The notes beneath the pieces were generated by a model that saw only the letters and a program-made list of their open reading frames with translations, ran no database searches and had not been told where the DNA came from. Both the position numbers and the translations under genes were made by a program. Source: Candidatus Hydrogenedentales bacterium (GTDB lineage: Bacteria; Hydrogenedentota; Hydrogenedentia; Hydrogenedentales; JAEUWI01). From it: DNA of 64,000 nucleotides. The stretch is from NCBI GenBank assembly GCA_942492815.1, contig OW818658.1, forward strand, positions 5,208,125 through 5,272,124. The letters are read 5' to 3'. Of this stretch, positions 10,442 through 57,721 are shown piece after piece. Each line of letters begins with the position of its first letter. Position 1 is the stretch's first letter.

Positions 10442-10475
10442 GGCCACGTGCAGAATGCACGTGGCCATATTTTTT
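10442..10475 (+). terminator. Rho-independent terminator of the SDR-SDR-wrbA operon
   Basis: Perfect hairpin GGCCACGTGCA-gaa-TGCACGTGGCC followed by ATATTTTTT, 14 nt after the wrbA stop. Confidence 0.75.
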
Positions 10476-10476
10476 A

Positions 10477-10586
10477 CCACGGATGGCACGGATATCACGG
10501 ATGAAGAGTGTGAGATATCGGGAAGTCGCTGAGCACGTTCGAAATGCCCGATTTTATTTCATCCGTGTTATCCGTGCCATCCGTGG
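10477..10586. repeat. Long inverted repeat (27-bp arms, 26/27 match) enclosing ~56 bp
   Basis: CCACGGATGGCACGGATATCACGGATG at 10477-10503 and its reverse complement at 10560-10586, between convergent wrbA and hydrolase genes. Confidence 0.6.
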
Positions 10587-10600
10587 CAGGAAATCTATCG

Positions 10601-15971: not shown

Positions 15972-18494
15972 CTATTCCTCGCCGCCCTCTTCGATCACGT
16001 CGTCGGGCGAGGAATCGTCCGCATCGCTGTCGCCATCCGCGCCGGCGGTGGCGTCATCATCGTTTTCTTCCGGCACAGCCTTGGCCACGGCACTCACCCG
16101 GGCGCCCTCCTGAGGCTTCATCACCGTCACGCCCTGCGTGTTGCGGCCGATGGTGCGGATGTCTTTCACCGAAGTGCGAATTACGATACCATCCGTGGCC
16201 ACCAACACCAGCTCGTCGTTGTCGTCCACGGTCATCATGCTGACCACGTTGCCGTTGCGCTCGGAAGTCTTGATGTTGATGATGCCGGAGCCGCCCCGGT
16301 GTTGCAGGCGATACTCGCCGACCTGGGTTCGCTTGCCGAAGCCGTGTTCGGTCACGCTGAGCACGGTGCGGTCATCCTGCGCGAGGGACATGCCCACCAC
16401 GTAGTCCTTCTCGTCGAGGCGAATGCCGATGACGCCCCGGGCCGTGCGGCCCATGGGACGCGCGTCGGTTTCGGGGAAGCGGATGGCCATGCCCTTGTAG
16501 GTGGCGATAAGCACGTTGTCGCTGCCGGAGGTAAGCTGCACGTCCATCAGCTCGTCGCCCTTGTCAATTTCGAGGGCGATGATACCGGTCGTGCGGGGAT
16601 TGCTATAGGCCTTCAGGGCGGTCTTCTTGACCGTACCCTTCTTGGTGACCATGAAGACGAACTTATCTTCTTCGTGCAGATCGCGCACCGGCAGGAAGGC
16701 CGTTACGGTCTCTTCACCGCCGAGACTGAGGAGATTCACCATGGCGCGACCGCGCGCGGTACGACTCATCTTCGGAAGTTCGTGCACCTTGCGCCAGTAG
16801 ACCCTGCCTAAGTTGGTGAAGAAGAGCATGTACTGGTGGGCCGACGCGATGAAGAGGTCTTTTACGAAATCCTCTTCCTTGGTGTCCATGCCGGACACGC
16901 CGCGGCCGCCGCGCTTCTGCTTGCGGTAGGTACTCACGGGGAGGCGCTTGATGTAGCCCTCGTTGGAAACCGTCACCACCATGTTCTCGTCGGCGATGAG
17001 ATCTTCGACGTTGAACTCGCCCTCTTCGTCGAGGATGTCCGTGCGCCGTTCGTCGCCATGCTTTTCCTTTACCGTAATGATTTCCTCGCGCACGACGGAC
17101 AGGATGTTTTTATGGCTGGAGAGGATCGTTGTCAGACGTTCGATTTCTTTGAGGAGTTCGGCATACTCGTTCTGGAGCTCTTCGCGTTCGAGACCGGTCA
17201 ACTGGCGTAAACGCATCGCCAGGATAGCGTTGGCCTGAATCAGCGTGAAGCCAAAGGCGGCCATGAGCTTGTCGCGGGCGTCGTCGCGATCCGCCGAAGC
17301 GCGGATGATCTTGATGATCTCGTCGATGTGGTCGATGGCCTTGAGCAGACCTTCGAGGATGTGGGCGCGGGCCTCCGCCTTGTCCAACAGGAAGCGGGTA
17401 CGGCGCTCGACGATTTCCGCGCGGTGCTCCACGTAGTAGTGGATCAGCTCGGCCAGATTCAGCACCTTGGGCTGGTTGTTCACCAGCGCCAGGAAAATAA
17501 TGCTCGCCGTCGCCTGCAATTGCGTGTGCTTGTAGAGTTGGTTCAACACCACTTCGGGCTCTTCACCCCGCCGCAGTTCGATCACCACGCGCATACCGTC
17601 CTTGTCGGACTCGTCGCGCAGATCGGTGATGCCTTCGACGGTCTTGCTGCGCACCAGGTCCGCGATCGACTCGATGAGCCGGAGCTTGTTCACCTGGTAG
17701 GGAATTTCCTGAATGATGATGCTCTGCTTGCCCTGGCCGCCGTCCTTCTTCGTCTCCACCGCCACGCGACCGCGCACTTTGAGGCGACCGCGTCCCGTGC
17801 GGTAGGCATCCTTGATGCCCTTGCGCCCGAGGATCACGCCGCCCGTGGGGAAGTCAGGCCCCGTGACGAATTGCATCAGATCGTTCGGTGTGGCCTTAGG
17901 GTTGTCGATGAAGTGGATGATGGCGTTGCACACTTCGGTAAGGTTATGGGGCGGGCAACTCGTCGCCATACCCACGGCGATACCGTAGGAACCGTTCACC
18001 AGCAGGTTCGGAAAAGCCGAGGGAAGAACCGTCGGCTCTTTCAGTCGCGTATCAAAGTTGTCCTGGTGATCCACCGTCTCTTTGTCGAGATCCGCCATCA
18101 TGTCGGCGGTGATGGATTCCATGCGCGCTTCGGTATACCGGTAGGCCGCCGCGTTGTCGCCGTCGATCGAGCCAAAGTTACCCTGGCTGTCCACCAGCGG
18201 GTAGCGCATGTTCCATTCCTGGGCCATGCGGACCAGCGCATCGTACACCGACGAGTCGCCGTGGGGGTGGTAGTTACCGAGGGTCTCACCGACGATGGAG
18301 GCGCATTTACGGAAGGCCCGGCCCTTGACCAGGCCCAGCTCCTGCATCACATAAAGGATGCGGCGGTGAACCGGCTTCAGCCCGTCGCGCACGTCCGGCA
18401 GCGCGCGGCTCACGATCACGCTCATGGAATACTCCATGAACGACTTCTGCATTTCGTGCTCGATGGTTATCGGCTTGATATCGTCTCTGGCCAT
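15972..18494 (-). CDS. gyrA: DNA gyrase subunit A
   Basis: 840 aa; canonical N-terminus with active-site Tyr region, acidic C-terminal tail. Confidence 0.97.
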   Translation of the reverse strand: MARDDIKPITIEHEMQKSFMEYSMSVIVSRALPDVRDGLKPVHRRILYVMQELGLVKGRAFRKCASIVGETLGNYHPHGDSSVYDALVRMAQEWNMRYPLVDSQGNFGSIDGDNAAAYRYTEARMESITADMMADLDKETVDHQDNFDTRLKEPTVLPSAFPNLLVNGSYGIAVGMATSCPPHNLTEVCNAIIHFIDNPKATPNDLMQFVTGPDFPTGGVILGRKGIKDAYRTGRGRLKVRGRVAVETKKDGGQGKQSIIIQEIPYQVNKLRLIESIADLVRSKTVEGITDLRDESDKDGMRVVIELRRGEEPEVVLNQLYKHTQLQATASIIFLALVNNQPKVLNLAELIHYYVEHRAEIVERRTRFLLDKAEARAHILEGLLKAIDHIDEIIKIIRASADRDDARDKLMAAFGFTLIQANAILAMRLRQLTGLEREELQNEYAELLKEIERLTTILSSHKNILSVVREEIITVKEKHGDERRTDILDEEGEFNVEDLIADENMVVTVSNEGYIKRLPVSTYRKQKRGGRGVSGMDTKEEDFVKDLFIASAHQYMLFFTNLGRVYWRKVHELPKMSRTARGRAMVNLLSLGGEETVTAFLPVRDLHEEDKFVFMVTKKGTVKKTALKAYSNPRTTGIIALEIDKGDELMDVQLTSGSDNVLIATYKGMAIRFPETDARPMGRTARGVIGIRLDEKDYVVGMSLAQDDRTVLSVTEHGFGKRTQVGEYRLQHRGGSGIINIKTSERNGNVVSMMTVDDNDELVLVATDGIVIRTSVKDIRTIGRNTQGVTVMKPQEGARVSAVAKAVPEENDDDATAGADGDSDADDSSPDDVIEEGGEE

Positions 18495-18584: not shown

Positions 18585-18989
18585 AGTTCGAAGCGGAGCT
18601 TCGGGTACTGCATTTCCAAGCGGAGCTCTTGACATTATCCATAAATTCTTTTGGATAGGAGACTATTTTATTAGTCCCGAAGGGACGGCATATCGTAGCC
18701 CAGGGTGGAGCGAGGCACGAGCGAAACCCTGGGTATTGTTGCAATAAGATCACTAGCCCCAGCGGGGCGGCATAGGAGAACGAGGGAAATCGTCCCCGGT
18801 CTTCTATGCCATCCCTTCGGGATTTAAGAGTGTTTGGGCCAGTTGACCCAGGGTTCCGCTCGTACCTCGCTTCACCCTGGGCTACGATATGCCGCCACTG
18901 CGTGGCTAATTGGACAACTTTATGTAAACCGTTTCAGTGTAATAGCTGTAAATTTATGGGTAATGACAAAAGCGAAGCCTGGGAACGAG
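18585..18989. repeat. Family-1 palindromic structured repeat element (~400 bp), copy A, in the gyrB-gyrA intergenic region
   Basis: Left module TAGTCCCGAAGGGACGGCA...GTAGCCCAGGGTGGAGCGAGGCACGAGCGAAACCCTGGG and its inverted counterpart on the right arm; related copies at 24621-25001, 27928-28258 and 28354-28689. Confidence 0.75.
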
Positions 18990-19010: not shown

Positions 19011-21443
<2,433 letters not shown>

Positions 21444-21743: not shown

Positions 21744-23723
21744 ATGAGCATCCGCTTTCGCCTGCTCCTCCTCGTGTCCGTGCTCGTCGTCATCTCCGTC
21801 ACCGTGCTCGGCTACCTCACATCGGCCTACGTGGACACGCGCCAGCGCCTTCGCGAGGCCGATGTTGTCCTCGTCGAGCTCGTGCAGGCGGCGGGCACTT
21901 CGGCGGCGATTGCCCGACTGCGGCTCCTGGTGCTCAATCGGCAGAGCACCGGCGCCGGCGCACCCGGCGACGTAGAGGAGGAGGCCCTGCGCTGCGCGCG
22001 TGCCTTTGGTGCCTGGAGATCCGCCTCAACCCTCGCGATTCAAGTGGGCATTGAAGGCGAAGCCGACGACCTGGCGCAAATTGAAGTCTTGGCAGAGGAT
22101 TTTCATGCGGAGCTCAAGAAGCTCCGCGCGGCCCTGGGCGGTAAGGCCGCGGCGGATCCCGCCGTCTTCGATCAACTCCTCGATACGGGCGTACACCTGC
22201 GCATTGTTGACGATCTTCGCGAGATGAGCACCGCGTTTGACGGGATCCTGCTCAGCATGGGCACCACCCCCTGGATCGCTCGAATCGGGCCCGGCCAGCT
22301 TGCCACCGCACGCGCCACCCTCGCCGAGATCCGCTCGGCCCACTTGGTCCGGGATCGCCTCCAGCGCCAATCCAGCCGCATTGCCTTGCTCCTGGCCGAC
22401 GCGTCGCCTGAAATCGACCGCGCGATCATCAGCACCACCGTTTCCCTGAACGAAACGATGGGAGCCTGGCTGAGGGCCACGGAAGCCTATGCGGAGGTCT
22501 CCGGCGAGCCCGCACCGCCGCATTACGAAAAGTTTGTCGTCGCCAACAGGATGCTCCAGGGGCACGTCAATCAGATCCTGGAGGATGCGCGCCGCGGACG
22601 CCTCGACGACGCGCGGGCACGCGCCACCGAAACCTGGATGCCTGCGCTCCAGAATGAACTGCTGCCCCTCCTGGAGGAGAGCCTGAACACGGAAGTCGCC
22701 GAACTGCGGAGCATGCTGGTGGAACTCTCCAGCTCCACCGCTTCGGCGGGCGCGGGCGGCATAGCCGTGATTTGCGCCGTCCTGCTCACCACCATCGCGG
22801 GCGCGTTCCACACAGTACGCTCCATGCTCCGTTCCCTGGACCAGCTTCGCGCGGGGACGGAACGTGTCGGCGCGGGAGATTTCGCCCACCGCGTGAATCT
22901 CTCCACCTCGGACGAGCTGGGCCGCCTCGGGGCGAATTTCGACGCGATGGCGGAAAAGCTTCAGGAGCAGGTGCGGCGGCGCGAAGCCCTCGAAGTGGAG
23001 TTGCTCCGCAACGAACGCCTCGCAACGCTGGGCCAGGTCATCGCCACCGTGAGCCACGAAATACGCAATCCCCTGGGCACCATTCAGACCTCGATCTACT
23101 CGCTCCGCAAACGGATGGGCGATCAGGGCGACGCCGTGGCAAAGTCGCTGGACCGCGCCGAGCGGAGTATACTACGGTGTGACCGGATCATCGGCGAGCT
23201 GCTGGAATATACCCGCACCCGTGAACCGGTCTGTGTGGAGACTCCCTTGGATGCATGGCTCGCGGAGGTGCTGGACGACTTCAACCTCCCCACCGGGGTC
23301 GCGGTCACACGGAAACTGGATTCGGGCGCGGGCGTTGCCATCGACCGAAACCGGCTCCAGGGGTGCGTAGTGAACTTGCTCAGCAACGCGTGCCAGTCCA
23401 TGGTGGAGCGGCCCGGCGGCCCGGAGCGTTGCGAACTGCTCGTCGAGTCCCGATGCGCCGCCGGACGCGTGGAAATGCGGATTGCCGACACCGGGCCCGG
23501 CATCCCACCGGAAGTGCTGGCCCGAGTCTTCGAGCCCATGTTCAGCACGCGCACCTTCGGTGTGGGCCTGGGGTTGCCCATCGTGAAAAAAAACATGGAG
23601 CAGCACGGCGGGGGCGTGGAACTCGCCAGCGAAGCCGGATGCGGGACGACCGCAACGCTCTGGCTCCCCTTGGTGCAAAGGAAGGAAAAACAGGATGAAG
23701 AATCTCCGAATACTGGTGGTTGA
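21744..23723 (+). CDS. Sensor histidine kinase with periplasmic sensor region, HAMP, HisKA and HATPase_c domains
   Basis: ATG at 21744 gives TM anchor MSIRFRLLLLVSVLVVISV; second TM then HAMP; H-box ATVSHEIRNPLGTI; ATPase motifs DTGPGIP and GLGLPIV. Confidence 0.85.
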   Translation: MSIRFRLLLLVSVLVVISVTVLGYLTSAYVDTRQRLREADVVLVELVQAAGTSAAIARLRLLVLNRQSTGAGAPGDVEEEALRCARAFGAWRSASTLAIQVGIEGEADDLAQIEVLAEDFHAELKKLRAALGGKAAADPAVFDQLLDTGVHLRIVDDLREMSTAFDGILLSMGTTPWIARIGPGQLATARATLAEIRSAHLVRDRLQRQSSRIALLLADASPEIDRAIISTTVSLNETMGAWLRATEAYAEVSGEPAPPHYEKFVVANRMLQGHVNQILEDARRGRLDDARARATETWMPALQNELLPLLEESLNTEVAELRSMLVELSSSTASAGAGGIAVICAVLLTTIAGAFHTVRSMLRSLDQLRAGTERVGAGDFAHRVNLSTSDELGRLGANFDAMAEKLQEQVRRREALEVELLRNERLATLGQVIATVSHEIRNPLGTIQTSIYSLRKRMGDQGDAVAKSLDRAERSILRCDRIIGELLEYTRTREPVCVETPLDAWLAEVLDDFNLPTGVAVTRKLDSGAGVAIDRNRLQGCVVNLLSNACQSMVERPGGPERCELLVESRCAAGRVEMRIADTGPGIPPEVLARVFEPMFSTRTFGVGLGLPIVKKNMEQHGGGVELASEAGCGTTATLWLPLVQRKEKQDEESPNTGG

Positions 23724-24423
23724 CGATGACCGCGACTTCGCCGAGGGCGTGGCCGATGTGCTGCAACTCCACGGCCATGAAACCGCCGTGGCCCATTCAG
23801 GTGAGGAAGCCCTGGAAACCTTCACCGAGACGGAATTCGACGTAACCTTCATGGATGTGAAGCTACCCGGCTGGAACGGCGTCGAGAGCTTTCGGGAATT
23901 CCGCCGGCGCTTCCCCGGCGCAAAAGTCGTGATGATGACCGCCTACAGCCTGGACAATCTGATGGACGTAACCACGGAGAAAGGCGTCATCGGATCGTTC
24001 CACAAGCCCCTGGCCTTCGGCGAGGTCGAGGCCTTGTTGGACCGCGTGCGGCAGGACACGCGCGTGCTGATCGTGGACGACGATGTCGATTTCGCGAGAG
24101 AAATCCGCGACATGCTGGAGGTCGCCGGCTTTTCGGTGCGCTCCTGCTTCGACGGGCAAACCGCCATCCGGCGATGCCTGGAGGAATCCTTCGACGCCAT
24201 GGTCCTCGACCTGCGCCTGCCCGGAGCCAGCGGTGCGGAAGTTTTCAGGGCCGTGCGCGTGGCGCGGCCGGACTTGCGGATCGTCACTGTCACGGGATTT
24301 GATGAGGAATCCATCGAAAGCGATCCCGAGAAAATCGCTATCGACCCCAACCGTGTTCTTCACAAGCCCTTCAATCCCGACAGCCTCCTCCGCATGCTGG
24401 AGCACGTACCAGGCGTGGGTTGA
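23695..24423 (+). CDS. Response regulator with two tandem receiver (REC) domains, no output domain
   Basis: Two REC domains (LVVDDDRDFAE...DVKLPG and LIVDDDVDFAR...DLRLPG); overlaps the kinase gene by 29 nt. Confidence 0.85.
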   Translation: MKNLRILVVDDDRDFAEGVADVLQLHGHETAVAHSGEEALETFTETEFDVTFMDVKLPGWNGVESFREFRRRFPGAKVVMMTAYSLDNLMDVTTEKGVIGSFHKPLAFGEVEALLDRVRQDTRVLIVDDDVDFAREIRDMLEVAGFSVRSCFDGQTAIRRCLEESFDAMVLDLRLPGASGAEVFRAVRVARPDLRIVTVTGFDEESIESDPEKIAIDPNRVLHKPFNPDSLLRMLEHVPGVG

Positions 24424-24471: not shown

Positions 24472-24600
24472 GGGGACGTACCGCCGCACTGGCACCCGAC
24501 ACAAGCGAGGTGAATGCTAGGGCCTTCTCCTCAGCCCGGTTAAGCGAGGCCCATACCAAAGCGGCGGCATGTCCCGGTAGATGCTGGAATCGTGACGCGA
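24472..24600. repeat. Family-2 structured repeat, partial solo unit
   Basis: GGGGACGTACCGCCGC ... GCGGCGGCATGTCCCGGTAGATGCTGGAATCGTGACGCG boxes shared with the tandem units at 50337-50855 and 57074-57720. Confidence 0.7.
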
Positions 24601-24620
24601 GAACTTTTCCTCTCGTTTCC

Positions 24621-25001
24621 CTCGTTCCCAAGCTCCGCTCTTGTCATTACCCACAAGTTTCGCGAGATAGGTGTCTATTGCTTTAGTCCCGAAGGGACGT
24701 CATATCGTAGCCCAGGGTGGAGCGAGGTACGAGCGAAACCCTGGGTATTATGGAAAAAATTCATTAGCCCCAGCGGGGCGGCATAGAAGAACCGGCAATC
24801 CATCCCTGGTTTTCTGTGTCATCCCTTCTGGATTCAATGTTTTTGGGGTCCGGTGACCCGGGGTTCCGCTCCTACCTCGCTGTACCCTGGGCTACGATAT
24901 GCCGCCACTACGTGGCTAATCAGATGCATTTCTGTGATCTGTTGCAGTGTCCTATGCTTAAGAACATATGGGCAATGACAAGAGCTCCGCTTGGGAACGA
25001 G
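24621..25001. repeat. Family-1 palindromic structured repeat element, copy B
   Basis: Terminal arms CTCGTTCCCAAGCTCCGCTCTTGTCATTACCC / GGGCAATGACAAGAGCTCCGCTTGGGAACGAG are inverted repeats; internal modules near-identical to copy A. Confidence 0.75.
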
Positions 25002-25030
25002 TGAAGGAGGATATTGTGGGCCCAGGGCAA

Positions 25031-25241: not shown

Positions 25242-25901
25242 TCAATAGGTCTTCAGGCCCGATTCATCCTCACTCTCCAGCAGGTCCTGTACCGCCCCTT
25301 GCAGTTGTTGTGCTATCTCTTTGGCACCACCTTTGCCCGGCACCACGTGATCAAAATTCATGGGCTTCCCAACGACCACGCTCAACCGCGTGAGCCTTGG
25401 CAATCGCCGGCCCTTGGGCCAGCTTTCGAAGGCCCCATGGATCGCGCAAGGCAGCACCGGCACTGGACATCCGCGCAGCAGCAGCCCTATCCCCGCCTTG
25501 AACTCGCCCAGCTCCCCCGTCGTTGATCGCGTGCCTTCCGGAAAGAGGATCAGCACGTTGCCCGGCGTTTTGAGCAACTGCTGGCAGATCTTCAGGCTCT
25601 GTTGGGGACCCGCCGTCCGGTGAAAGGGCAGGGCGTTCACGATGATCGAGGAAAACATGACGCGCGGGAGCGCGGTGAAGAAGTAGTCCGCCGCCGCCGC
25701 CGGAAATATACGATGGCGCATGCGAAAGGGCAGCATGGAAATGAGACAGATCGCGTCCCAATGACTCGAGTGATTGGCCACAAGAACGAAGGCGGAATCC
25801 TGGGGGATATTTTCCAACCCGGTGACGCGAAAGCGATGAAAGACCTTGAGCCAAACGCGAATGAACAGCCCCGCGGCGGATCGCGTCGCGAAGGTCCACA
25901 T
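25242..25901 (-). CDS. plsC: 1-acyl-sn-glycerol-3-phosphate acyltransferase (PlsC family)
   Basis: HxxxxD motif (NHSSHWD) and FPEGTRS motif; ATG at 25901 chosen (ORF track extends to 26246 across cdsA in another frame). Confidence 0.8.
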   Translation of the reverse strand: MWTFATRSAAGLFIRVWLKVFHRFRVTGLENIPQDSAFVLVANHSSHWDAICLISMLPFRMRHRIFPAAAADYFFTALPRVMFSSIIVNALPFHRTAGPQQSLKICQQLLKTPGNVLILFPEGTRSTTGELGEFKAGIGLLLRGCPVPVLPCAIHGAFESWPKGRRLPRLTRLSVVVGKPMNFDHVVPGKGGAKEIAQQLQGAVQDLLESEDESGLKTY

Positions 25902-25993
25902 GGACGGCTCGCGGGGAAAGTCGCGCAAACCATCCGCCAGACTCTTGTCGAGATCGCGGGCGCTATCGTAGTGCCATTCGTCCACTCCCCCCC

Positions 25994-26950
25994 CTATCGC
26001 ACGCCGTAGAGGCCGTAGAACCAGTTCACCATATGCAGGAACAGGGGCGCGGTGAAGATCAGGCTGTCGATGCGATCCAGAATGCCCCCATGGCCCGGAA
26101 TCAGCGCGCCCGTATCCTTGATGTTGATGTCGCGCTTGATGACGCTGATGGAAAGATCGCCCAACTGCCCGCCGATGCCCACGATGAGCCCCGTGATGAT
26201 CAGTTGAAGCGGCCCGAAGTGGGGCAGGCAGGGCGCGGCGATCCACGGGAAGACCATGGAGACGGCCAGCGCACCGAGGGATCCCTCCCAGGTTTTGTTC
26301 GGGCTGATTTGGTCGCGCAGCTTATGCCGACCAAAGGCCTTGCCAAAGCAGAAGGCCGCGATGTCGTTGATCTCCACGGCCACGATGAGGAAGAGCAGAT
26401 ACGCATAGGGCCGGTCGGAATTCGCGAGGAAGGTCAGGTGACCGAACATCCATGCAATGTACACGAAGCCCACGAGCGCGAGCGACACCAACTGCAACTG
26501 GCCCTTCGTGCGGTTGCGCAGGATCGGGATGGTCAGAATCAGCGCGATGGCGTAGACCGGCAACGTTCGAAACATGCCGAACCAGCCGTGCCGTCCATTG
26601 TAGGGATCGGTCAGGATCGCGATGAGGAAAATCGCCCCGATGGACACATAGACCGCGCCCGTCATCCACCAGTCGCGATAGAGCCCCGTGGCCCGGGCGA
26701 ACTCGCGGAAACCGATCAAGGCCACGATGGAAAAGAGTGTGATGGTGGCCTCGCGCCCGAGGAGCACGGCGGCCAGCACCGTGGGGATCATGATCAGCCA
26801 GCCCTGGTAGATACGCCACACGGCGGTGACGTTTTTCCCGAAGGCGTACTTCAGCAGCAACAGGGCCAGGCCCGCGACAATCAGCGCGCCGAGAATAAAC
26901 CCGCCGAGGAAGCGAACACTCGGGTCGTGCAGCGCGGCGTGAAAATTCAT
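25994..26950 (-). CDS. cdsA: Phosphatidate cytidylyltransferase (CDP-diglyceride synthase)
   Basis: 318 aa multi-TM protein; conserved C-terminal CdsA signature ...KRDINIKDTGALIPGHGGILDRIDSL. Confidence 0.9.
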   Translation of the reverse strand: MNFHAALHDPSVRFLGGFILGALIVAGLALLLLKYAFGKNVTAVWRIYQGWLIMIPTVLAAVLLGREATITLFSIVALIGFREFARATGLYRDWWMTGAVYVSIGAIFLIAILTDPYNGRHGWFGMFRTLPVYAIALILTIPILRNRTKGQLQLVSLALVGFVYIAWMFGHLTFLANSDRPYAYLLFLIVAVEINDIAAFCFGKAFGRHKLRDQISPNKTWEGSLGALAVSMVFPWIAAPCLPHFGPLQLIITGLIVGIGGQLGDLSISVIKRDINIKDTGALIPGHGGILDRIDSLIFTAPLFLHMVNWFYGLYGVR

Positions 26951-27612: not shown

Positions 27613-27887
27613 CGATCCCGATACCCCTTTCCATAAATTGGCTGCGGCGTAGTATCCGGGACCCCGTCGGAAAGAATCAACAAGGTGCCGCCCAACAGGG
27701 GCTCAGGCATTCCTGCCTGAGACTGGGCTCACCCAGACATGGAAAGGCCCGGCGAGTATGTAAGGCGATCTGGGATCACAACGTCGTGTTCTCGAATGCC
27801 GAGACTTGCGCACACGCCCACAGGCCTGTCGAATGGCAACGTGAGCGCTGTCTCAGACAGGAATGTCTAAGCCCCTTGGGACCGCAC

Positions 27888-27927
27888 CCCGCGCCACGAT
27901 GCGACGTTGTTCCGCGAGGGGTGGGAG
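27888..27927 (-). pseudogene. Truncated silent copy of the hsdS 3' conserved region (cassette fragment 1)
   Basis: Minus-strand reading GTTLPPLAEQRRIVAR, then diverges into a GACAGGAATGTC hairpin motif and stops. Confidence 0.65.
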
Positions 27928-28258
27928 GGTGGTACCTCGAAGGGCCGGAAGGCGTTAGCCACGAAGTGGCGGCAGTTTGTAGCCTGGGGTGGAGCGAGGC
28001 ACGAGCGCAACCCCAGGATCACCAAACAAACACATCGAATCCGCGAAGCGGATGCCAGATTGCGATAACCCCGCTCTGCCATCCGCCGCAGGCGGATTCA
28101 ACCAGTGGGGGATTCGGACCTGGGGCTGAAGCCCCAGGCTAATGACTGATGTCCACTTCGTGGACTAAGAAAACGCTCGGAGAACACCGTCCCCTGTGCC
28201 GTCTTTCCCATATTCCTGGTTCACTCGTTCCCAATTCGTAATTCATAATTCATAATTC
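27928..28258. repeat. Family-1-like structured repeat element, tandem unit 1 downstream of hsdS
   Basis: Contains TAGCCACGAAGTGGCGGCA hairpin, CCTGGGGTGGAGCGAGGCACGAGCGCAACCCCAGG hairpin and mirrored GTCCACTTCGTGGAC / CCTGGGGCTGAAGCCCCAGG hairpins. Confidence 0.7.
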
Positions 28259-28353
28259 TCAATTCGTCAGTTCACTGACGCCCGCCTCCAACTGGCCCAC
28301 CAGCCCCATCAGCTCCTCCACCCGCGCCACGATGCGACGTTGTTCCGCCAGGA
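28259..28353 (-). pseudogene. In-frame silent copy of the hsdS 3' conserved-region cassette (fragment 2)
   Basis: Minus-strand translation AVRGTTFPLLAEQRRIVARVEELMGLVGQLEAGVSELTN-stop; differs from the hsdS C-terminus by a 15-codon in-frame deletion and a few substitutions. Confidence 0.7.
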
Positions 28354-28689
28354 GCGGAAAAGTGGTACCTCGAACGGCCGGAAGGCGTTAGCCACGAAGT
28401 GGCGGCAGTTTGTAGCCTGGGGTGGAGCGAGGCACGAGCGCAACCCCAGGATCACCAAACAAACACATCGAATCCGCGAAGCGGATGGCAGGTCACGAAG
28501 ACCATGCTCTGCCATCCGCTTCGCGGATTCAAAGAGTGGGGCATTCGGACCTGGGGCTGAAGCCCCAGGCTAATGACTGATGTCCACTTCGTGGACTAAG
28601 AAAACGCTCGGAGAACACCTCCCCCTGTACCGTTTTCCCCATATTCCTGGTTCACTCACACCCAATTCGTAATTCATAGTTCATAATTC
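28354..28689. repeat. Family-1-like structured repeat element, tandem unit 2 directly abutting the hsdS stop
   Basis: Near-identical to 27928-28258; includes a 22-bp perfect inverted repeat GAATCCGCGAAGCGGATGGCAG / CTGCCATCCGCTTCGCGGATTC. Confidence 0.7.
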
Positions 28690-30264
28690 TCAATTCGTCA
28701 GCGCGCTGACGCCCGCTTCCAGCAGCGCCACCGCCGTCCGGCGCGACGTCGCGATCTGCGCCTCCAACTGGTCCACTAGCCCCATCAACTCCTCCACCCG
28801 CGCCACGATGCGGCGTTGTTCCGCGAGGGGTGGGAGAGGAAATTGAATTGAACAAATAGTTTTCATGTTCAAAAATGGCTGGACTGCCTCGGATGCAATC
28901 CCACGAAGATACTCGGCTATAGCATTCAAGTAGATGCACAAATACTGGGCCGTAACCACCTCACCTACGCGAAATCTGCACAAACCCGTTGTGGAGAGCA
29001 TCCCCTCCGGCATCGACTCCGGATAGATGGCACAGAGTCCAATGCTTCCGACTTTACCTAAGAGTACATCGTTCGGCAATACGTTGTGCCGCCTCAGCAA
29101 CGCGAACTTTTCCTCTCGAATGTATCGAAGGTCGTTGGGATTAAACCTAAACGGCTTAACATTCACCATTCGAATCACGGGGACACCCGTCTCTATGTAA
29201 TCCGTCTTTATGTTTATAGATTGACCGAAGGGCCCGTCGACAATCGCTGACTCTGAAGCATTCCCTATCTCGCCAATTCTGCACCACGTCCAGGATTCTG
29301 GAAGCGGATGGTTGTGCCCACTCAGGCTAGAATCAGCCAGTGCTCTTGGTTTACGCATCTCCCCTGATTTAATCGCGATTTGTTTAGCGCTTTCCACCCT
29401 CGCGAGGAGCTCCTCCGCCCCTTCATCTGCCGGGTCCTGGGGCACGAGCTTTCCCCGAACGGCGAGGGTGAGGATGGACTTGCGGAGGTCGGCGGGGTCG
29501 ATGGGGCAGGCCGGGTGAAAGAGGAGCTTGAGGTTTTCCGGGGTCGGGTCCTCGTTGAACCGGGACACGCTGGCGCGGGCGAGATCGGCGTGCCGCGCGT
29601 CCCGTTCCCGCTGCTGCGCCTCCAGCCGGTCACACAGGGCCATCAAGGCATCCACCTTCGCCACAATCCGCTTCTGCTCCGCGAGCGGCGGGAGGGGAAT
29701 CTCGAATCGCTCAATCATCCCTTTTGTCAGCGCCTGCCGGGTTGCTCCAACTTGTACATCATCGATCATCACTTGAATCGCCGGACTGGCCAGAAACTTC
29801 GCAAGGAACACCGGGTCCAGATCGGGTGTGGGACGTATTATAGTCACGTGCTGGTTCACCCGCGCGCCCACCATCTCCACTGGCGCCGTCGTGACTCGGC
29901 CAATCGACGCACCTGTGATATTGAGGAGAACGTCATCCGCCTGCACGATCACATTCGAGAGCTTATCTGCTTGTTCGCTCGTCAAGAACACAAGGCCGAG
30001 AGGTTCGAAACCGCGAAAGTGAACGTTCATCGAACGAATGAGCGGAATCCCTTGAGTCACGTAAGAGACCCGGCCTCCCGACGGTGTTGCACCACTGCCG
30101 ATCTTGGAAGCCAACGACTTGAGAGTCACCAAAGGCCAGGGCTCGCCAACCGGCAACAGTTTTCCCGAGAAGGCAAGGTGAAGCACCAGTTCCCGCATCT
30201 TGTCCACAGCCCTGGGCGCGTCGGCGAACAGCTCAAAGTTCTCAAAAAAAGTGTCGAGGTTCAT
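28690..30264 (-). CDS. hsdS: Type I restriction-modification specificity subunit HsdS (two target-recognition domains)
   Basis: Central and C-terminal conserved repeats LPPLAEQKRIVAKVDALM... and LPPLAEQRRIVARVEELM...; ATG at 30264 preferred (ORF track start 30297). Confidence 0.9.
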   Translation of the reverse strand: MNLDTFFENFELFADAPRAVDKMRELVLHLAFSGKLLPVGEPWPLVTLKSLASKIGSGATPSGGRVSYVTQGIPLIRSMNVHFRGFEPLGLVFLTSEQADKLSNVIVQADDVLLNITGASIGRVTTAPVEMVGARVNQHVTIIRPTPDLDPVFLAKFLASPAIQVMIDDVQVGATRQALTKGMIERFEIPLPPLAEQKRIVAKVDALMALCDRLEAQQRERDARHADLARASVSRFNEDPTPENLKLLFHPACPIDPADLRKSILTLAVRGKLVPQDPADEGAEELLARVESAKQIAIKSGEMRKPRALADSSLSGHNHPLPESWTWCRIGEIGNASESAIVDGPFGQSINIKTDYIETGVPVIRMVNVKPFRFNPNDLRYIREEKFALLRRHNVLPNDVLLGKVGSIGLCAIYPESMPEGMLSTTGLCRFRVGEVVTAQYLCIYLNAIAEYLRGIASEAVQPFLNMKTICSIQFPLPPLAEQRRIVARVEELMGLVDQLEAQIATSRRTAVALLEAGVSALTN

Positions 30265-30676
30265 TGTACCCCCAGGGACTGACGCGCGCAGGCGCACTTG
30301 TCGCGAGCGGCACAGACCAGGCGGTCAATCGGCGATGGTGAAAGCGGCAGGCACGCCCATGCGCGTGGCTGTCCCGTCGTGAGGGAGATGCACGCGATAC
30401 TCAAAGACAGGCCCGGTCCGCGACACGCCCCCTGAATACGGGCGTCGCGCGTGCGTCGAGGGCGCTCGGGCCACGACGGGACAGCCACGGACGTTGAAAT
30501 ACCTGTTGCTCGTAAACGACCCCCGTCAATCCATGGTGCCTTTGCTACCGGAATACACCGGTCCGCGTCAGTCCCTGTGAGACTGCCCTTCACACCATCG
30601 CAGGCCCCTCGCAGGCAAGTCGCATCGGCGACTGACGCGACGCCACGGGCACGGGAAAGCCAACCGGAGCGGCCAG

Positions 30677-30865
30677 ACAAAGGAGCTTGGACATTCCTGT
30701 CCGAGACAAAGCCTGCGTTACAAATTGACAGGCCCGCTGGCATGTGCGAAACCTCCGCTATCAAAAATCGGGACTTTGGCACGCCTGGCTTTACAGACAA
30801 CTTCACAGGGCCCTTCGGTGTTGGCGCAGGCGCTGTCTCGGACAGGAATGTCCAAGCTCCTTTGT
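30677..30865. mobile_element. MITE-like element, 189 bp with 32-bp perfect terminal inverted repeats
   Basis: ACAAAGGAGCTTGGACATTCCTGTCCGAGACA at 30677-30708 and exact reverse complement at 30834-30865; related solo motif at 27845-27872; no ORF inside. Confidence 0.65.
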
Positions 30866-30913: not shown

Positions 30914-32350
30914 TCATCGCGTCAGCGCCTCCATCAATTGCGCCTTCAATGCTTCCCGGGTCTCGGCGATCTGCGCCAGGAGCTTTTCGTATTCCGGCAG
31001 GAGTTCGTCCACGTTGCCGGGGCCGGTGTCGGTGCTGTGGGGGTTCTTCAGGTCGAGGTTGTAGTTGCCCGCCTGGATGGCCGCCACGGAGACGCGCCAG
31101 GCCTGCTCGTTTTCCACGCGCTTCTTCCACCACTTTTTCTCGGGCGCGAATTCCTCAATGCGGATGGGCTTGGTCTTGTTGTAGCTCTTGGCGCCGGGGG
31201 GATAGGGGTGCTCGTAGTACCAGACCTCCTTCGTGGGCTTGCCCGCGTCGAAAAAGAGCAGATTGGTGCGGATGCCGGTGTAGGGGCTGAAGACGCCGTT
31301 GGGCAGGCGCACGATCGTGTGGAGGTTGAACTCGGTCAGGAGCCGCTCCTTGATGCGGGTCTTCACGCCTTCGCCGAAGAGGGTGCCGTCGGGCAACACG
31401 AGCCCCGCGCGGCCGCCAGGCTTGAGCAGCTTCATCAGCAGCACGAGGAAGAGATCGGCTGTTTCTCGCGTGCGGAATTCCGTCGGGAAGTTGGCCTCGA
31501 TCCCGTCTTCCTCCATGCCGCCGAAGGGCGGGTTGGTGACGATGACGTCCACGCGCTCGGTGGCCTTCCAGTCGCGCAGTGGCCGGGCGAGGGTGTTGTC
31601 GTGGCGCACGTTGGCGGGCACGTCGATGCCGTGGAGCATGAGGTTGGTCATGCAGAGGACATGGGGCAGGTGCTTCTTCTCGATGCCGTGGAAGCAGTCC
31701 TGGATCGCGCGCTCGTCGGCCTCGGTTTTGGCCTGCTTGCGCAGGTGCTCGATGGCGCAGGTGAGGAAGCCGCCGGTGCCGCAGGCGGGATCGAGGAGGG
31801 TCTCTCCGAGGCGCGGGTTGACCTGCTCCACGATGAACTGGGTGACGGCCCGGGGCGTGTAGAACTCGCCCGCGTTGCCCGCGGACTGGAGGTCTTTCAG
31901 AATGCGCTCGTAGATGTCGCCGAACATATGGCGGTCGTCGGAGGCGTTGAAATCGATGCCATTGATCTTGTTGATCACCTGGCGCATGAGGGTGCCGTTT
32001 TTCATGTAGTTGTTGGCGTCTTCAAAGCTCATGCGGATGAGCCCGGCAATCTTGTCCTGGCCGCCGGTGAGGGCCTTGAGCTTGGGCAGGAGCGTGTTGT
32101 TCACAAAATCGAGGAGGGCCTCGCCCGTGATGCCTTCCTCGTCCTTCGCCCAGTGGCTCCAGCGCAGGTGCGGGGGCAGGGGCGACTTGTAGTGGTCGCG
32201 GATGAGTTCGAGTTCCTGCTCGCGGTCATCGAATATTTTCAGGAAGAACATCCAACCGAGCTGCTCCAGGCGCTGGGCGTCGCCATAGGTGCCGGCGTCC
32301 TTGCGCATGATGTCCTGGATGGATTTTACGATATTGGAAACGTTGGACAT
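30914..32350 (-). CDS. hsdM: Type I restriction-modification DNA methyltransferase subunit HsdM
   Basis: N6-adenine methyltransferase motifs (TNPPFG, LDPACGTGGFL); 478 aa. Confidence 0.95.
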   Translation of the reverse strand: MSNVSNIVKSIQDIMRKDAGTYGDAQRLEQLGWMFFLKIFDDREQELELIRDHYKSPLPPHLRWSHWAKDEEGITGEALLDFVNNTLLPKLKALTGGQDKIAGLIRMSFEDANNYMKNGTLMRQVINKINGIDFNASDDRHMFGDIYERILKDLQSAGNAGEFYTPRAVTQFIVEQVNPRLGETLLDPACGTGGFLTCAIEHLRKQAKTEADERAIQDCFHGIEKKHLPHVLCMTNLMLHGIDVPANVRHDNTLARPLRDWKATERVDVIVTNPPFGGMEEDGIEANFPTEFRTRETADLFLVLLMKLLKPGGRAGLVLPDGTLFGEGVKTRIKERLLTEFNLHTIVRLPNGVFSPYTGIRTNLLFFDAGKPTKEVWYYEHPYPPGAKSYNKTKPIRIEEFAPEKKWWKKRVENEQAWRVSVAAIQAGNYNLDLKNPHSTDTGPGNVDELLPEYEKLLAQIAETREALKAQLMEALTR

Positions 32351-35967: not shown

Positions 35968-36237
35968 GCGGCCCTCCCGTTGTCCCGTGCCCCCGGTGCT
36001 TGACGTCGCTGGTGGCGGCGCTCACTGGAATCCATACTGCCGCACGGGATATTGAAAGCTTAGCGCAGGCTGCGGGGATGGCGCAACGCAAACGGGAGCG
36101 CGGGTTTTCCTACCCGCGTATCGGGCAACTTAGTTGCGCGATCAAGTGAGGCGGGGCTACGGGCGGAACCGAATGCGCCGTTGGCGCAACCACGTGTAGG
36201 AAGACCCGTGCTCCCGGTTTCCGTCCTGAACTCCCCC

Positions 36238-43353: not shown

Positions 43354-46300
43354 TTATCGCGCCAGACGGAATCCGTTGATACCGTCGGAGTGGTTCGGGT
43401 CGTAGCGGAAGCGTCGGGACGAGCGCTGGTTCTCTTTTTTCACCAGTCGGGCCCAGGCGCCGCCGCGGGCAACCTTGTTGGTGCCGACTTCCGGCCCGCG
43501 CGGATTGTCCGTCACGTTTTGACTGTAATACGTGTCCAGATACCAGTCATCGCACCATTCAACCACATTGCCCGCCATGTCATAAGCCCCGATGGGGCTG
43601 GGGCTGTCCACGGTCTGGATATTGCCGTTGGGGCTGATATTGATTCCATTGAACCAGCCCACCGGCGAGGTATAGGACTCTTTCGCATCCTGGAGGATGC
43701 CCAGCGGGTTGATGAAGCTCGTGCTGCCGTAATCCGGATTGGGGCGGAAGGCGTCCACGTGGAAGTTGACCCGATCCCGCGTGGTCAGCTCGTCGCTGGT
43801 GATCGGATAGATCCAGTGCTTCTCACCGTCCCAGGCGGCCGCCCGCTCCCATTCGGCCTCGGTGGGCAGGCGGTAGCCATTCTTCGTGAAGTCGCCGGTC
43901 CACGTGTCCGTATCGTAGACCGGTTCGAGGCCGGAACGCTCGGAAAGCCAGTTGGCAAAGAGCACGGCGCCATACCACGTGGGCTCGGTCACCGGATGCG
44001 TCGCCTTGTCGTAGAAGGTGCCGGCCGGGATCCCTTCAAGGCTTTTCGTCACGAAGGCCTTGGAAGTCTGATCGTAGTCAATCCCGTCCTCCGTGAGGGC
44101 GAAAGCGAAGACCACCCGAGGCAATACGCTGTCGTAGAACCATGCATGCTCGGGGAAGCCACGCCACGTGGCGCCGTTGGGCCGCTTGAGCAAATCGCGG
44201 GAAGGATGGTGCATGTAATTCATGAACTCGGCATATTGGGCGTTGTTCACCTCAAATTTGCCGATCTCGTAGGCGTCCAGCGTAACGTCGCGGCGGGGAA
44301 GCTCATCCGACTGATCGAAAAGCGCGTCATCGCCGTCTTCCCGGGGCCCCATGGTAAAGGTGCCCGCGGGCACGGGAATCATGACCACATCTTCAAAGAA
44401 GGACGCGCTGAAGGTGCTCGTGGCGACCACCTCGGTGTCCGCGCGAGGATTGTCGGTGCTGCCATCGCTCCACTGGGAGAAGAGGTAGCCCTCATCGGGG
44501 ACCGCGGTCACCGCTGCCGTACTCGCGCCCACCGCAACATCCTGAACGGCGACACCGGCAATGTTCCCATTTTCCCCGGCCTCGTAGGTCACCGTAAGTG
44601 TCGCAGAGAAATTGGCCGTGACGGAAATATCGGCGCTGACATCCAGATCCGTGCGGGGATTGTCGAGAACGCCATCGCTCCAGCCGTCGAAGCCAAATCC
44701 GTTGGCGGGTACCGCCGTCACCGCGCGGCCATCCGCACCATCGCGGATGGTCTGGCTCGTGGGCCCGGTCAGGCTCCCGTTGCTGCCCGCGATATAAGTC
44801 ACGGTGAACAGCTCAACAAACTGGGCGGTCACCGTCACATCACTGATTACATTAACGTCGGTACGGGGATTCTGCTTCGTGTTGTCACTCCATTTGTCGA
44901 ACACGAAACTGGCATTGGCGACGGCCGTCACGGCCGTGCCCGAACCGCCTGTATTCACAATCTGGGTCGTCGTGCCGGTCAGCGTTCCGCCTTCGCTGGC
45001 CAGATACGTCAGGGTATAGGCCGGCACGAACTCCGCCGTTACGCTCAGGTCGCTTGTGGGGCCTGTGTCCACCCGGGGATTTTCCGTGCGACCATCGCTC
45101 CACTGATCGAAGCCATAGCCCTCATTGGGCACAGCGGTAACCGCCGTACCTGTGCCGCCGCTGCCGATCACCTGCTCCGTATCCCCCGTCAGGGTTCCAT
45201 TCGAGCCCGCCGTGTAAACCAAATCGATCGCCGTGGCGAAGTTCGCGGTCACGGTAACATCACCGTCCACGTCAACGTCCGTTCTGGGATTGTCCGAGCG
45301 CCCATCACTCCAGCCCGCAAAGCCGAAGGTCGCATTGGGCACCGCTGTCACCGCCGTGCCGTCCTCGCCGTCATTCACGATCTGCGAGGTCGCGCCCGTG
45401 AGGGAGCCGTTGGCCCCGGCAACATACGTCAGCGTGTACTGGGCCAGGAAATTGGCCGTAACCGTCACATCCCCATCCACATCGAGGTCCGTGCGGGGGT
45501 TGTCCTCGCTGCCATCGCTCCAGCCAAGAAAGATGAAACCCTCGCCGGGCACCGCGTTGACGGGCGTGCCATCGTTCCCGTCGATGACGGACTGCTGGGT
45601 CACGCCTTCCAGGGTGCCACCCGCGCTGGCGGTGTAGGTGAGTTGGAAGACTTCCCGGAAGTTGGCCGTAACCGCCAGGTCCGCCGTCACGTTAAGATCC
45701 GTGCGCGGATTGTCCGTGCGACCGTCGCTCCAGTCTTCAAAGACGAAGCTGTCGTTGCGCACGGCGGTGACGGGCGAGCCGCTGCCGCCCTCCGGCACGA
45801 GCTGGTTGGCGTTGCCCGCGATCGTGCCGCCCGCGCCCGCGGTGTAAGTGAGCGCGAAGAGTTCGGCAAAGTTGGCGGTCACGGAAATGTCCGCGCCCAC
45901 CGTCCGGTCACGGCGGGGATTGAGGGTGCTGCCATCGCTCCAGTTGACGAAGGCGTAACCGTCCAGAGGCACCGCCGTCACGGCGGAACCGTCCGCGCCG
46001 GGGGCCACACTCTGGGGCGTAGTGCCTTCGATGGTGCCGCCGGGGCCCGCCGCATAGGTCAGGGAAAAGGGATCGCCCCCATCGCAGGGGCCTTCAAAAC
46101 CACCCAGCGCAATAATCTGATCGAGGCGGTTACGGCTGACCTGCAGGGTCTCCGCCGTCGGCGTGCCTTCGCCGAAGAGCAGGCACACGGTAACAAGGTC
46201 GCCCCCATCATCCTCGGGTGTGCCGGGAAGATCGAGCACCACAATCGTGTGCGGTGCAATGGAACTGTCCAAGCCGGCCGTTCCCACCACGGCGACATCG

Positions 46301-50291: not shown

Positions 50292-50331
50292 ATCGCCGCG
50301 CTCCACGATGCTGGAGCGCGGCGATTTTTTG
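50292..50331 (+). terminator. Rho-independent terminator after the speH / DHS-like operon
   Basis: ATCGCCGCGCTCCA-cgatgc-TGGAGCGCGGCGAT followed by TTTTTTGT. Confidence 0.8.
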
Positions 50332-50336
50332 TCTGA

Positions 50337-50855
50337 GGGGACGTACCGCCGCAAATAAACCCCGTAAAGGGCACACCGCCCTACGCCCTATGAGTCCATT
50401 CAACCGAGGGACGTTCACGCCAACGCGGCGGCATGTCCCTGGGGATGCTGGAATCACGACGCGGAATAAATCCAGGGCGCTCCATTACATCCGCCGGGAC
50501 GGGCACGCGCGCTGCCAGGAGCATCGCAAATAACAGTCATAGGAATGCGTGGAGTGACCCGCGCCCACACAAGTCGCGGGCGCGAGTCCGTCCCAGGGGA
50601 CGTACCGCCGACAATATTCCCCGTGAAGGGCACACCACCCTGCGCGCTCTGGATCCATTCAACCGAGGAACGTTCACACCAAGGCGGCATGTCCCTGGGG
50701 ATACTGGAATCGTGACGCGGAATAATCCAAGACCCTCCATTACGTCCACCGGGACGGGCACGCGCGTTGCCGGGAGCGTCGCACATAACCGTCATAGGAA
50801 TGTGCGGAGTGACCCGCGCCCGCGCCCGCAGCCGTCGCGGGCGCGAGTCCGTCCC
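50337..50855. repeat. Family-2 structured repeat, two tandem units (~258 + 261 bp)
   Basis: Units about 85% identical; each has a 5' GGGGACGTACCGCC box, a central GGCGGCATGTCCCTGGGGAT(G/A)CTGGAATC(A/G)TGACGCGG box and a 3' GGGACGGGCACGCGCG...CGCGGGCGCGAGTCCGTCCC box. Confidence 0.8.
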
Positions 50856-50856
50856 T

Positions 50857-57065: not shown

Positions 57066-57073
57066 GGGTACCA

Positions 57074-57720: not shown

Positions 57721-57721
57721 G

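Follow-up and report, generated by a model that had tools for sequence, protein, structure and literature searches.

What is the imperfect palindrome that fills the intergenic region between gyrB and gyrA in a Candidatus Hydrogenedentales bacterium, and to which class of elements does it belong? The question was raised by a 64,000-nucleotide stretch of DNA (contig OW818658.1, positions 5,208,125 to 5,272,124, referred to herein as the window), in which an original prediction, made from the letters alone, had recognized four copies of a structured element (elements 1 to 4) that share a module of two hairpins. That prediction wavered between a miniature inverted-repeat transposable element (MITE) or repetitive extragenic palindromic (REP)-like element on the one hand and a structured noncoding (nc)RNA on the other. 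We show herein that the same module recurs as inverted pairs in many related genomes, and that such pairs bracket a Y1 transposase gene in relatives. With a probability of roughly 0.8, the elements of the window are non-autonomous mobile DNA of the type of REPs, REP doublets forming hairpins (REPINs), and bacterial interspersed mosaic elements (BIMEs), mobilized in trans by a transposase like that of insertion sequence (IS) 200.

The two-hairpin module and the sequences first quoted for it are present where they were reported. The 21-nt apex of the larger hairpin, described at the time as a loop (TGGAGCGAGGCACGAGCGMAA), occurs five times in the window with up to three mismatches, where none is expected (100 shuffles). 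A covariance model of the module (R1), built from 56 module sequences and run on the 64 kb with all filters off, found exactly eight modules, with E-values from 7e-19 to 4e-6, and nothing further at E<0.1. The eight form four convergent inverted pairs, and 95-109 nt separate the modules of each pair. A module measures ~67 nt and consists, in order, of a small hairpin (hp1, for example GTCCC-GAA-GGGAC), a linker of 8-9 nt (here the 8-nt GGCATATC), a GTAG-like tetranucleotide, and a larger hairpin (hp2) composed of CCCAGGGT, a 19-nt apex (GGAGCGAGGCACGAGCGAA), and ACCCTGGG. GTAG stands directly before the 8-bp basal stem of hp2 in all six window modules with a long apex. The doublets are oriented head-to-head with GTAG outside, one module per strand in every element, and the palindromy that had been described is evident in the inner arms, which comprise 65 nt at 88% complementarity in element 1 (18670-18734 / 18846-18910) and 64 nt at 83% in element 2 (24683-24746 / 24856-24919). 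As single-stranded DNA, element 1 folds into one long hairpin (-105.8 kcal/mol, z = -13.3). A weak R1 match at 49243-49312(-) (13.2 bits, E 0.16), in which a CCGAAGG hairpin resembles hp1 and is accompanied by a CCTGG...CCAGG stem, may be a decayed module or a module of a different family.

The claim of four copies holds for the number of inverted pairs but not for their independence. Elements 3 and 4 belong to one tandem duplication (27888-28301 / 28321-28732, with a 431-433-bp spacing and 90-92% identity), and the insertion sites recorded in the window therefore number three rather than four. All three are intergenic, and every copy abuts the 3' end of a gene.

A scan of species-representative genomes for the apex pattern yielded at least 117 loci; the counts of modules, pairs, and open reading frames (ORFs) given below cover the listed loci. 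Most of these lie in metagenome-assembled genomes (MAGs) of Candidatus Hydrogenedentota, with many loci per MAG, and the others in Planctomycetota, Verrucomicrobiota, Nitrospiraceae, Pyrinomonadaceae, and a few Gammaproteobacteria; the host phyla are Hydrogenedentota, Planctomycetota, Verrucomicrobiota, Acidobacteriota, and Nitrospirota. Together with the window, the listed loci gave at least 221 R1 matches, 201 of them full length. Neighboring modules form 58 convergent pairs, 47 of which have a gap of 89-139 nt, such that the four elements of the window represent the standard unit. Divergent and tandem neighbors are few and irregularly spaced. Head-to-tail arrays, with modules 12-153 nt apart, take the place of inverted doublets in some MAGs (L088 300-2100, L106 7480-7780, and L025 60-660).

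When the ORFs of these loci were clustered, only one of the 25 most widely shared clusters lay between modules. It encodes a protein of 150 aa that matches Pfam Y1_Tnp PF01797 (E 5e-26) and NCBIfam NF033573 (IS200/IS605; 68.3 bits versus a cut-off of 55). The layout [hp1-GTAG-hp2-hp3]-tnpA-[hp3'-hp2'-CTAC-hp1'] was found in three Hydrogenedentota MAGs (L061, L058, and L037) and in Pyrinomonadaceae (L070). They account for the four convergent pairs in which a gap of 538-665 nt encloses tnpA, and a unit of this kind corresponds to a window element in which the gene replaces the ~100-nt center. Four further homologues on long contigs were taken from a protein search with their flanks unseen (L118 of Phycisphaerales, L119 of Gemmataceae, L120, and L121), and all four have R1 modules on the plus strand upstream and on the minus strand downstream (E 4e-8 to 6e-13). 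In total, an inverted module pair brackets tnpA in eight of eight genes examined, all in relatives. Three other pairs contain C-terminal remnants of tnpA (L049 6951-7414, L079 6504-6849, and L046 779-1124), and form a deletion series from the gene-bearing unit to the gene-less doublet. In one related MAG, at least 79 modules are spread over 33 loci, among which there is a single full tnpA, and pairs without a gene greatly exceed transposase genes in number. Such gene-less pairs, made of a module that flanks Y1 tnpA in relatives, point to REP/REPIN-type selfish DNA rather than to a new RNA gene. The REP-like part of the original reading is thus supported by the flanked transposase gene, the ~100-nt doublets, and the many copies.

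More than 5,300 clusters (90% identity) match the 150-aa transposase at E <= 1e-20. Homologues are named "REP element-mobilizing transposase RayT" by the Joint Genome Institute and "IS200/IS605 family transposase" by NCBI, and among the best clusters listed, nearly all occur on a single contig. Other families recurring near modules in the listed loci are abundant housekeeping paralogues, with no reverse transcriptase or DDE transposase among them. An association with reverse transcriptases or group II introns, as mentioned in the Rfam/Wikipedia description, was discarded, as no such gene recurs near the modules of the listed loci; ORF L116_3448_3756, which clustered with the transposases, proved to be a spurious reading frame through repeats.

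How do these units compare with known systems? The REP/REPIN/BIME repeats of E. coli, Pseudomonas, and Stenotrophomonas, with their REP-associated tyrosine transposases (RAYTs), are likewise GC-rich imperfect palindromes with a 5' foot of the GT[AG]G type (PMC3116915, PMC3733652, PMC6006769). Most GTAG REPs are found as head-head dimers whose spacers, of 20-100 bp, are conserved, and they lie between unidirectional or convergent genes (PMC3733652). The present units resemble them in the head-to-head orientation of the doublets, the conserved spacer (here ~100 nt), and the numerous intergenic copies beside unidirectional or convergent genes; a low-copy Y1/HUH gene bracketed by inverted repeats and long vertical persistence at orthologous sites are further points of agreement. 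Unlike REPs, the present module is bipartite in that an additional C(GNA)G mini-hairpin lies 8-9 nt upstream of the tetranucleotide, and its hp2 has a conserved G·A-rich internal loop and apex. Its tetranucleotide is often TTAG or AAAG, and a typical REPIN is several times shorter than the full unit, which measures 380-430 bp when its outer inverted repeats are counted.

The enzyme also departs from canonical RAYTs. The Y motifs of the four fetched tnpA products (YIETQEEHH, YIDNQREHH, YIENQEEHH, and YIANQKEHH, i.e., YI(E/D/A)(T/N)Q..HH) are of the class-1 subclass 1.2 type (Y---Q--HH), and not of the class-2 RAYT type (Y---NP). Subclass 1.2 was introduced by Quentin et al. in 2018 for IS200-like but non-IS proteins, mostly of cyanobacteria and Bacteroidetes, and its definition comprises Y---Q--HH together with a specific C-terminal domain and a low copy number; no REP partner is listed for it (PMC6006769). 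The transposases of the relatives agree with that definition in the 150-aa length, HUH (HIH/HVH), WQ, and Y---Q--HH motifs, conserved C-terminal extension (..EYDERYIWD), and low copy number, whereas, in contrast to the subclass as described, the eight of eight genes belong to five other phyla and are bracketed by structured GTAG-type modules. The Y motif therefore suggests an element that works like a REPIN outside the canonical RAYT clades. IS200/IS605 elements share the Y1/HUH transposase, subterminal hairpins, and the lack of an evident target duplication, and their gene-less derivatives (palindrome-associated transposable elements, PATEs) also arise through internal deletion. The ends of IS200/IS605 elements are non-inverted, with both hairpins on one strand, and the elements occur in multiple near-identical copies. 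Here, on the contrary, the gene is low-copy and its two flanks mirror each other, which sets these units apart from classical IS200/IS605 elements.

If the elements move as REP/REPIN-type DNA, the module would fold on its GTAG strand whenever the DNA becomes single-stranded, for example in the lagging-strand template. A transposase acting in trans, and encoded by a single-copy gene at another genomic site, would recognize hp2 together with the foot tetranucleotide, hp2 offering a G·A-rich internal loop and a GNA-capped apex. Cleavage and rejoining as in the IS200/IS605 and RAYT systems would then spread doublets without target duplications, and inserted copies would be inherited vertically for a long time before decaying. 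Effects on neighboring transcripts would be secondary.

The structure of the module is maintained. As first noted, the stems differ between copies of the window in a compensatory manner (GTCCC/GGGAC, GCCAC/GTGGC, and GTCCAC/GTGGAC in hp1; CCCAGGG/CCCTGGG and CCTGGGG/CCCCAGG in hp2). Among 78 distinct homologues, both sides have changed in 13 of 13 pairs, paired cells amount to 90.4% versus 71.5% in shuffles (a value reached by none of 500 shuffles), and the covariation score is 0.438 versus at most 0.091 for slid partners. The alignment behind these values was fitted to the model, which favors structure; for hp1, counts from model-fitted alignments were blurred by register shifts (77.5% paired), and a direct hairpin search was used instead. 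The covariance-model search proposed with the original prediction, carried out on the window and the listed loci, thus recovered the modules with covariation beyond shuffles, and selection on the structure is supported. A single-stranded DNA hairpin recognized by an HUH transposase would give the same covariation, which is therefore no argument for RNA.

Several strand-specific features point to the GTAG strand. The tetranucleotide 5' of hp2 in the 201 full-length modules is GTAG in 84, TTAG in 60, AAAG in 22, and GTGG in 10 (176 of 201 in sum). The loop of hp1 is a G-N-A triloop in 123 of 155 perfect hairpins, with a C·G closing pair in 143, and d(C-GNA-G) mini-hairpins are reportedly exceptionally stable in DNA (Hirao and colleagues); on the strand modeled by Rfam, the same triloops read as U-N-C loops. 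The non-Watson-Crick cells of hp2, read on the GTAG strand, are G·T in 25 cases and A·C in seven, and DNA folding favors this strand over its complement by 1.4-1.8 kcal/mol. Taken together, the foot tetranucleotide, the C(GNA)G triloops, the apex rich in G·A, and the G·T excess favor a DNA hairpin formed on the GTAG strand, opposite to the strand modeled by Rfam.

The apex reads naturally as a fold, in which GGGT/ACCC would be followed by a 3x3 internal loop (5'-G-N-A / 5'-G-N-A) with G·A juxtapositions and, above it, a GC/GC clamp, tandem G·A / A·G, and a G-C pair closing a G-Y-A triloop. Among 131 distinct 19-nt apexes, free variation is confined to three positions predicted to be unpaired, and the pair 5-15 has two T-A and two T·G variants. 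Shorter natural variants, with the tip GCGAAGC in L120 and L033 and a Watson-Crick stem instead in L118, support the helical region above the internal loop. In the four loci fetched through the protein, an unbiased sample, the GGA...GNA frame is kept and the tip is not. A likeness of the apex (GGUACGAGCGGAACC) to the sarcin-ricin loop was judged coincidental, since the GAGA tetraloop is not kept and a C variant breaks the motif.

The same apex of 13-21 nt (GCGAGGYACGAGC) is also seen on other repeat bodies in Planctomycetota and Gammaproteobacteria. In Planctomycetota (L002, L008, L011, L013, L031, L048, L071, L087, and others), it sits on a compact GTGG-footed hairpin (GGGTGGCCGGGG...CCCCGGCCACCC); Gammaproteobacteria with the apex on another body include L029, L047, L057, L092, and L095, and in Bermanella, Oceanicoccus, and Cardiobacterium it belongs to a classical GTAG repeat (GTAGGATGGGTT-apex-TAACCCATC). 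The shared apex may reflect horizontal spread or, alternatively, convergent evolution of a stable G·A/GNA mini-hairpin.

Judging by its model matches, the module is not new and is already catalogued in Rfam as Acido-Lenti-1 (RF01687), a candidate small (s)RNA with no function assigned there. The 2010 description of that family assigns it to Acidobacteria and Lentisphaerae, as an RNA that is probably not cis-regulatory (PMC2864571); a full-text literature search found no functional follow-up of Acido-Lenti-1 and no paper containing the apex sequence. The window modules match RF01687 on the strand opposite to the GTAG strand, with three matches in a gathering-threshold run; in an E-value run, six of the eight modules score at least 37 bits, the gathering score (range 38-50 bits), and the remaining two 27.5-27.7. 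RF01687 also matches both tnpA flanks in L121 and one in L061. Module and model agree in both hairpins, in the linker, and in the conserved CUA, which reads TAG on the other strand. What Rfam models, however, is the opposite strand of a short-apex form, listed as an sRNA from Acidobacteria and Lentisphaerae, whereas the present family mostly has a long apex, which amounts to a 17-nt insertion relative to the model loop, and occurs as inverted doublets and around a transposase gene.

Might the module nonetheless be transcribed, from hp2 to hp1, as the Acido-Lenti-1 sRNA, the covariation then reflecting RNA structure? This is very unlikely, even though matches to RF01687 reach a curated gathering score, both stems covary strongly, the window copies are all intergenic beside gene 3' ends, and in other systems REPs are frequently part of transcripts and can influence the stability of mRNA (PMC3733652). 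An sRNA would hardly be expected as inverted pairs with one module per strand and a fixed spacer in 47 of 58 cases, as brackets of a transposase gene in all eight loci, or as dozens of modules per genome. The G·T wobbles, GNA triloops, and purine G·A apex lie on the strand opposite to the Rfam model, promoter and terminator consensus scans revealed no enrichment and no T-run after any module hairpin, and the gyrB-gyrA copy has been lost or halved in closer relatives. The ncRNA half of the original reading agrees with an existing annotation but gains no support here, the strand-specific features being on the other strand. An orphan Rfam "sRNA" family, 15 years old, may thus be re-read as the DNA repeat of a transposase system, and automated ncRNA annotation of these phyla should allow for that possibility.

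Elements 1 and 2 share a further feature, outer terminal inverted repeats of ~40 nt that extend them to units of ~380 bp, and these bring DDE transposons into consideration. MITEs of such transposons are similarly ~380 bp long, intergenic, non-coding, and bounded by terminal inverted repeats, so that the outer repeats (TTCACTCGTTCCCAAGC...GCTCTTGTCATTACCCATA) could be the true ends, used by an unrelated transposase, with the REP modules as cargo or an earlier nested insertion. In element 2, the outer arms span 43 nt at 84%, and a comparison of elements 1 and 2 gives 40 nt at 88%. An exact pattern of the outer repeat was found in none of the at least 117 loci, and at three mismatches it is present in L036 and L026. 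A terminal remnant (ACTCGTTCCCATGCTCTGCC) persists in a relative (L122) without the doublet, and another MAG has the same kind of doublet inside a different outer palindrome of ~95-100 nt (units of ~430 bp). Yet elements 3 and 4 and most doublets elsewhere have no outer-repeat ends, and the listed loci contain neither a transposase with such ends nor a matching DDE transposase. Around the sequenced tnpA genes, it is the modules that form the immediate brackets, with which the elements share their covarying core hairpins, and REP dimers are known to sit sometimes within longer palindromes (PMC3733652). The target-site check suggested with the original prediction revealed no direct duplication at element 1 or element 2, a weak negative in that it concerns two copies and lacks a clean empty site for comparison. 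Altogether, a classical DDE-transposon MITE seems distinctly unlikely.

The history of the gyrB-gyrA spacer bears on whether element 1 has a role in gyrase expression. The orthologous spacer of L036, in which gyrA and gyrB are 80% and 77% identical in nucleotides, contains the same element, outer repeats included. Similarity between the two begins near 18612, as does that between elements 1 and 2, and the start of element 1 must be moved there from the predicted 18585, which had included a partly duplicated AAGCGGAGCT stretch. In the closest relative examined (L122, GyrA 94% identical), the doublet is gone, and only the terminal remnant is kept. L123 (GyrA 87%) retains half an element together with two small ORFs without a Pfam match, in L124 the spacer is occupied by a nucleotidyltransferase/HEPN gene pair, and that of L125 is short, unrelated, unalignable, and free of the element. 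None of these four spacers is a clean empty site. A small reading frame in the L122 spacer is related to the small ORFs of L123.

E. coli BIMEs have been described as binding sites for gyrase and nucleoid proteins. By analogy, a host-exapted cis element, acting as a 3'-end stabilizer or attenuator in the gyrB-gyrA transcript or as a gyrase/nucleoid-protein site, could be envisaged. The intact copy of L036 at such a distance, the half-element of L123, and the position of all window copies next to gene 3' ends are in keeping with it. On the contrary, the loss of the doublet in L122, the gene pair and the element-free spacer found in L124 and L125, and the absence of a T-tract after the hairpins speak against it and render it the least probable of the explanations considered. 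Since the contents of the spacer vary among relatives, it resembles an insertion hot spot rather than a conserved regulatory site, which argues against a conserved role in gyrase expression. The simplest reading of the compared spacers is that element 1 would be an old insertion, vertically inherited and eroded differently in each lineage, in a spacer tolerant of insertions.

Several observations weigh against mobilization by a subclass-1.2 transposase. Within the sequences compared, a transposition event, an empty site, and a cleavage site were all unseen. No transposase gene was found in the window by tblastn, and the source genome is not represented among the best 120 entries in either of two homologue lists, such that the linkage to tnpA is established in relatives only. 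At the sequenced tnpA flanks, nothing corresponds to the outer repeats of elements 1 and 2. Y---NP, the signature of class-2 RAYTs, is absent from the enzyme, and subclass 1.2 has been reported as generally devoid of terminal secondary structures (PMC6006769). Canonical GTAG occurs in only 42% of modules, the G·T excess concerns 32 non-independent cells, and the invariance of the apex is in part an artefact of ascertainment, because the probe fixed most of its bases.

We lean, by a modest margin of belief, towards a broader proposal, namely that subclass-1.2 Y1 proteins are the RAYT-equivalent of a second, independently evolved REP system, present in at least five non-proteobacterial phyla, with Acido-Lenti-1 as its repeat. 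If so, the recognition determinant would be a structured purine apex (a GGA/GNA internal loop, tandem G·A, and a GNA triloop), the window elements would be REPIN-like passengers, and some of them would predate the split of Hydrogenedentota lineages with 80%-identical gyrA (nucleotide level). Already the linkage to tnpA provides a large Y1-transposase subclass, previously without a substrate, with a candidate one, and takes REPIN-type, vertically persistent repeat populations to Hydrogenedentota and to the PVC (Planctomycetes-Verrucomicrobia-Chlamydiae) and Acidobacteriota groups. For the window itself, the repeats are probably ordinary selfish or relic DNA and should not be annotated as genes.

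Coordinates of the elements and their neighbors are collected in Table 1. Elements 3 and 4 have no left outer repeat, and the apex of their right-hand module measures 4 nt versus 19 nt in the long form, which makes them long/short heterodimers. The original prediction placed these two elements beside hsdS cassettes. What lies there are only fragments of the conserved C-terminal region of HsdS (~35 codons, TTFPLLAEQRRIVARVEELMGLVGQLEAGVSELTN*), not specificity cassettes; such a fragment makes up the remainder of the tandem duplication. The array downstream of hsdS (27850-28840) runs from the hsdS 3' end through element 4, a ~35-codon copy with an internal deletion, and element 3 to a further, decayed copy of the 3' fragment (27850-27929). 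It looks like the debris of unequal crossing-over rather than a specificity shufflon, and the supposed cassettes would accordingly be duplication debris and not a phase-variation system. To the right of element 3, an outer-repeat terminus (TTCACTCGTTCCCAA) is oriented as a left end (28214-28270 and 28645-28700 regions); an AT-rich run (TTCGTAATTCATAATTCATAATTCTCAATTCGTCA) follows it, and a similar run follows element 4. This terminus may be the stump of a second, truncated element.

Table 1. Elements, modules, and neighboring genes in the 64-kb window (R1 and RF01687 scores in bits)
Feature	Position	Strand	Description
gyrA	15972-18494	-	flanks element 1
Element 1, complete unit	18612..18989		~378-bp palindromic unit, gyrB-gyrA intergenic; from repeats, alignment to the L036 orthologous spacer, and DNA fold
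Element 1, left outer terminal inverted repeat	18613..18664	+	..TTTCCAAGCGGAGCTCTTGACATTATCCATAAATT..; inverted repeat; fuzzy matches in L036 and L026
Element 1, left module	18669..18735	+	R1 80.7, E 7e-19; RF01687 50.5 on the opposite strand
Element 1, left hp1	18674-18686	+	GTCCC-GAA-GGGAC
Element 1, left tetranucleotide	18695-18698	+	GTAG
Element 1, left hp2	18699-18733	+	8-bp stem and 19-nt apex at 18707-18725
Element 1, right module, inverted	18845..18911	-	hp1 GCCAC-GCA-GTGGC, GTAG, hp2; R1 76.8
Element 1, right outer terminal inverted repeat	18950..18989	-	..ATGGGTAATGACAAAAGCGAAGCCTGGGAACGAG; 88% to 24621-24660
gyrB	19011-21428	-	flanks element 1
Response-regulator gene	23695-24423	+	neighbor of element 2, convergent 3' end; Pfam
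Element 2, complete unit	24617..25005		~389 bp; outer arms 24617-24659 / 24963-25005, 43 nt at 84%
Element 2, left module	24681..24747	+	R1 79.5; RF01687 49.3, above the gathering score
Element 2, right module	24855..24921	-	R1 61.2; degenerate, with one A·C mismatch in hp2 and two apex changes
Acyltransferase gene	25242-26246	-	neighbor of element 2, convergent 3' end; Pfam
Element 3, core doublet	27953..28168		R1 79.3 and 31.0; RF01687 38.2 and 40.3
Element 3, long-apex module	27953-28019	+	R1
Element 3, short-apex module	28117-28168	-	R1
Duplicated hsdS 3'-end fragment	28262..28362	-	..PLLAEQRRIVARVEELMGLVGQLEAGVSELTN*; between elements 3 and 4; translation versus HsdS C-terminus
Element 4, core doublet	28386..28599		tandem duplicate of element 3
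Element 4, left module	28386-28452	+	R1
Element 4, right module	28548-28599	-	R1
hsdS	28690-30297	-	
hsdM	30914-32350	-	

Other repeats were also seen in the window. A different palindromic family lies between hsdS and hsdM (30677-30865), with arms of 41 nt that are 95% complementary and 107 nt apart. It contains GGACATTCCTGTCC, and a related copy is located beside element 3 (27806-27885); the gyrB-gyrA spacer of L123 has two tandem copies of a similar unit at 230-460, which starts with GTAGGATAGCCGTCCCGGCTGTCC and represents a second type of GTAG-footed hairpin. A further tandem family, with units of ~256-328 bp and hairpins such as GTCCCCGGGGAC and GCGCCCGCGAC.., occupies 50331-50871 and 57068-57734, and a 57-nt fragment of it stands immediately to the left of element 2 (24543-24599). 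At 44423-45984, a 210-nt periodic repeat comprises seven copies at 64-71% identity and is probably a repeated protein domain in a large gene. An inverted pair of 49 nt at 90% has its arms 19 kb apart (36093-36141 / 55558-55606), and a local 37-nt inverted repeat at 10469-10594 is rich in CACGGAT.

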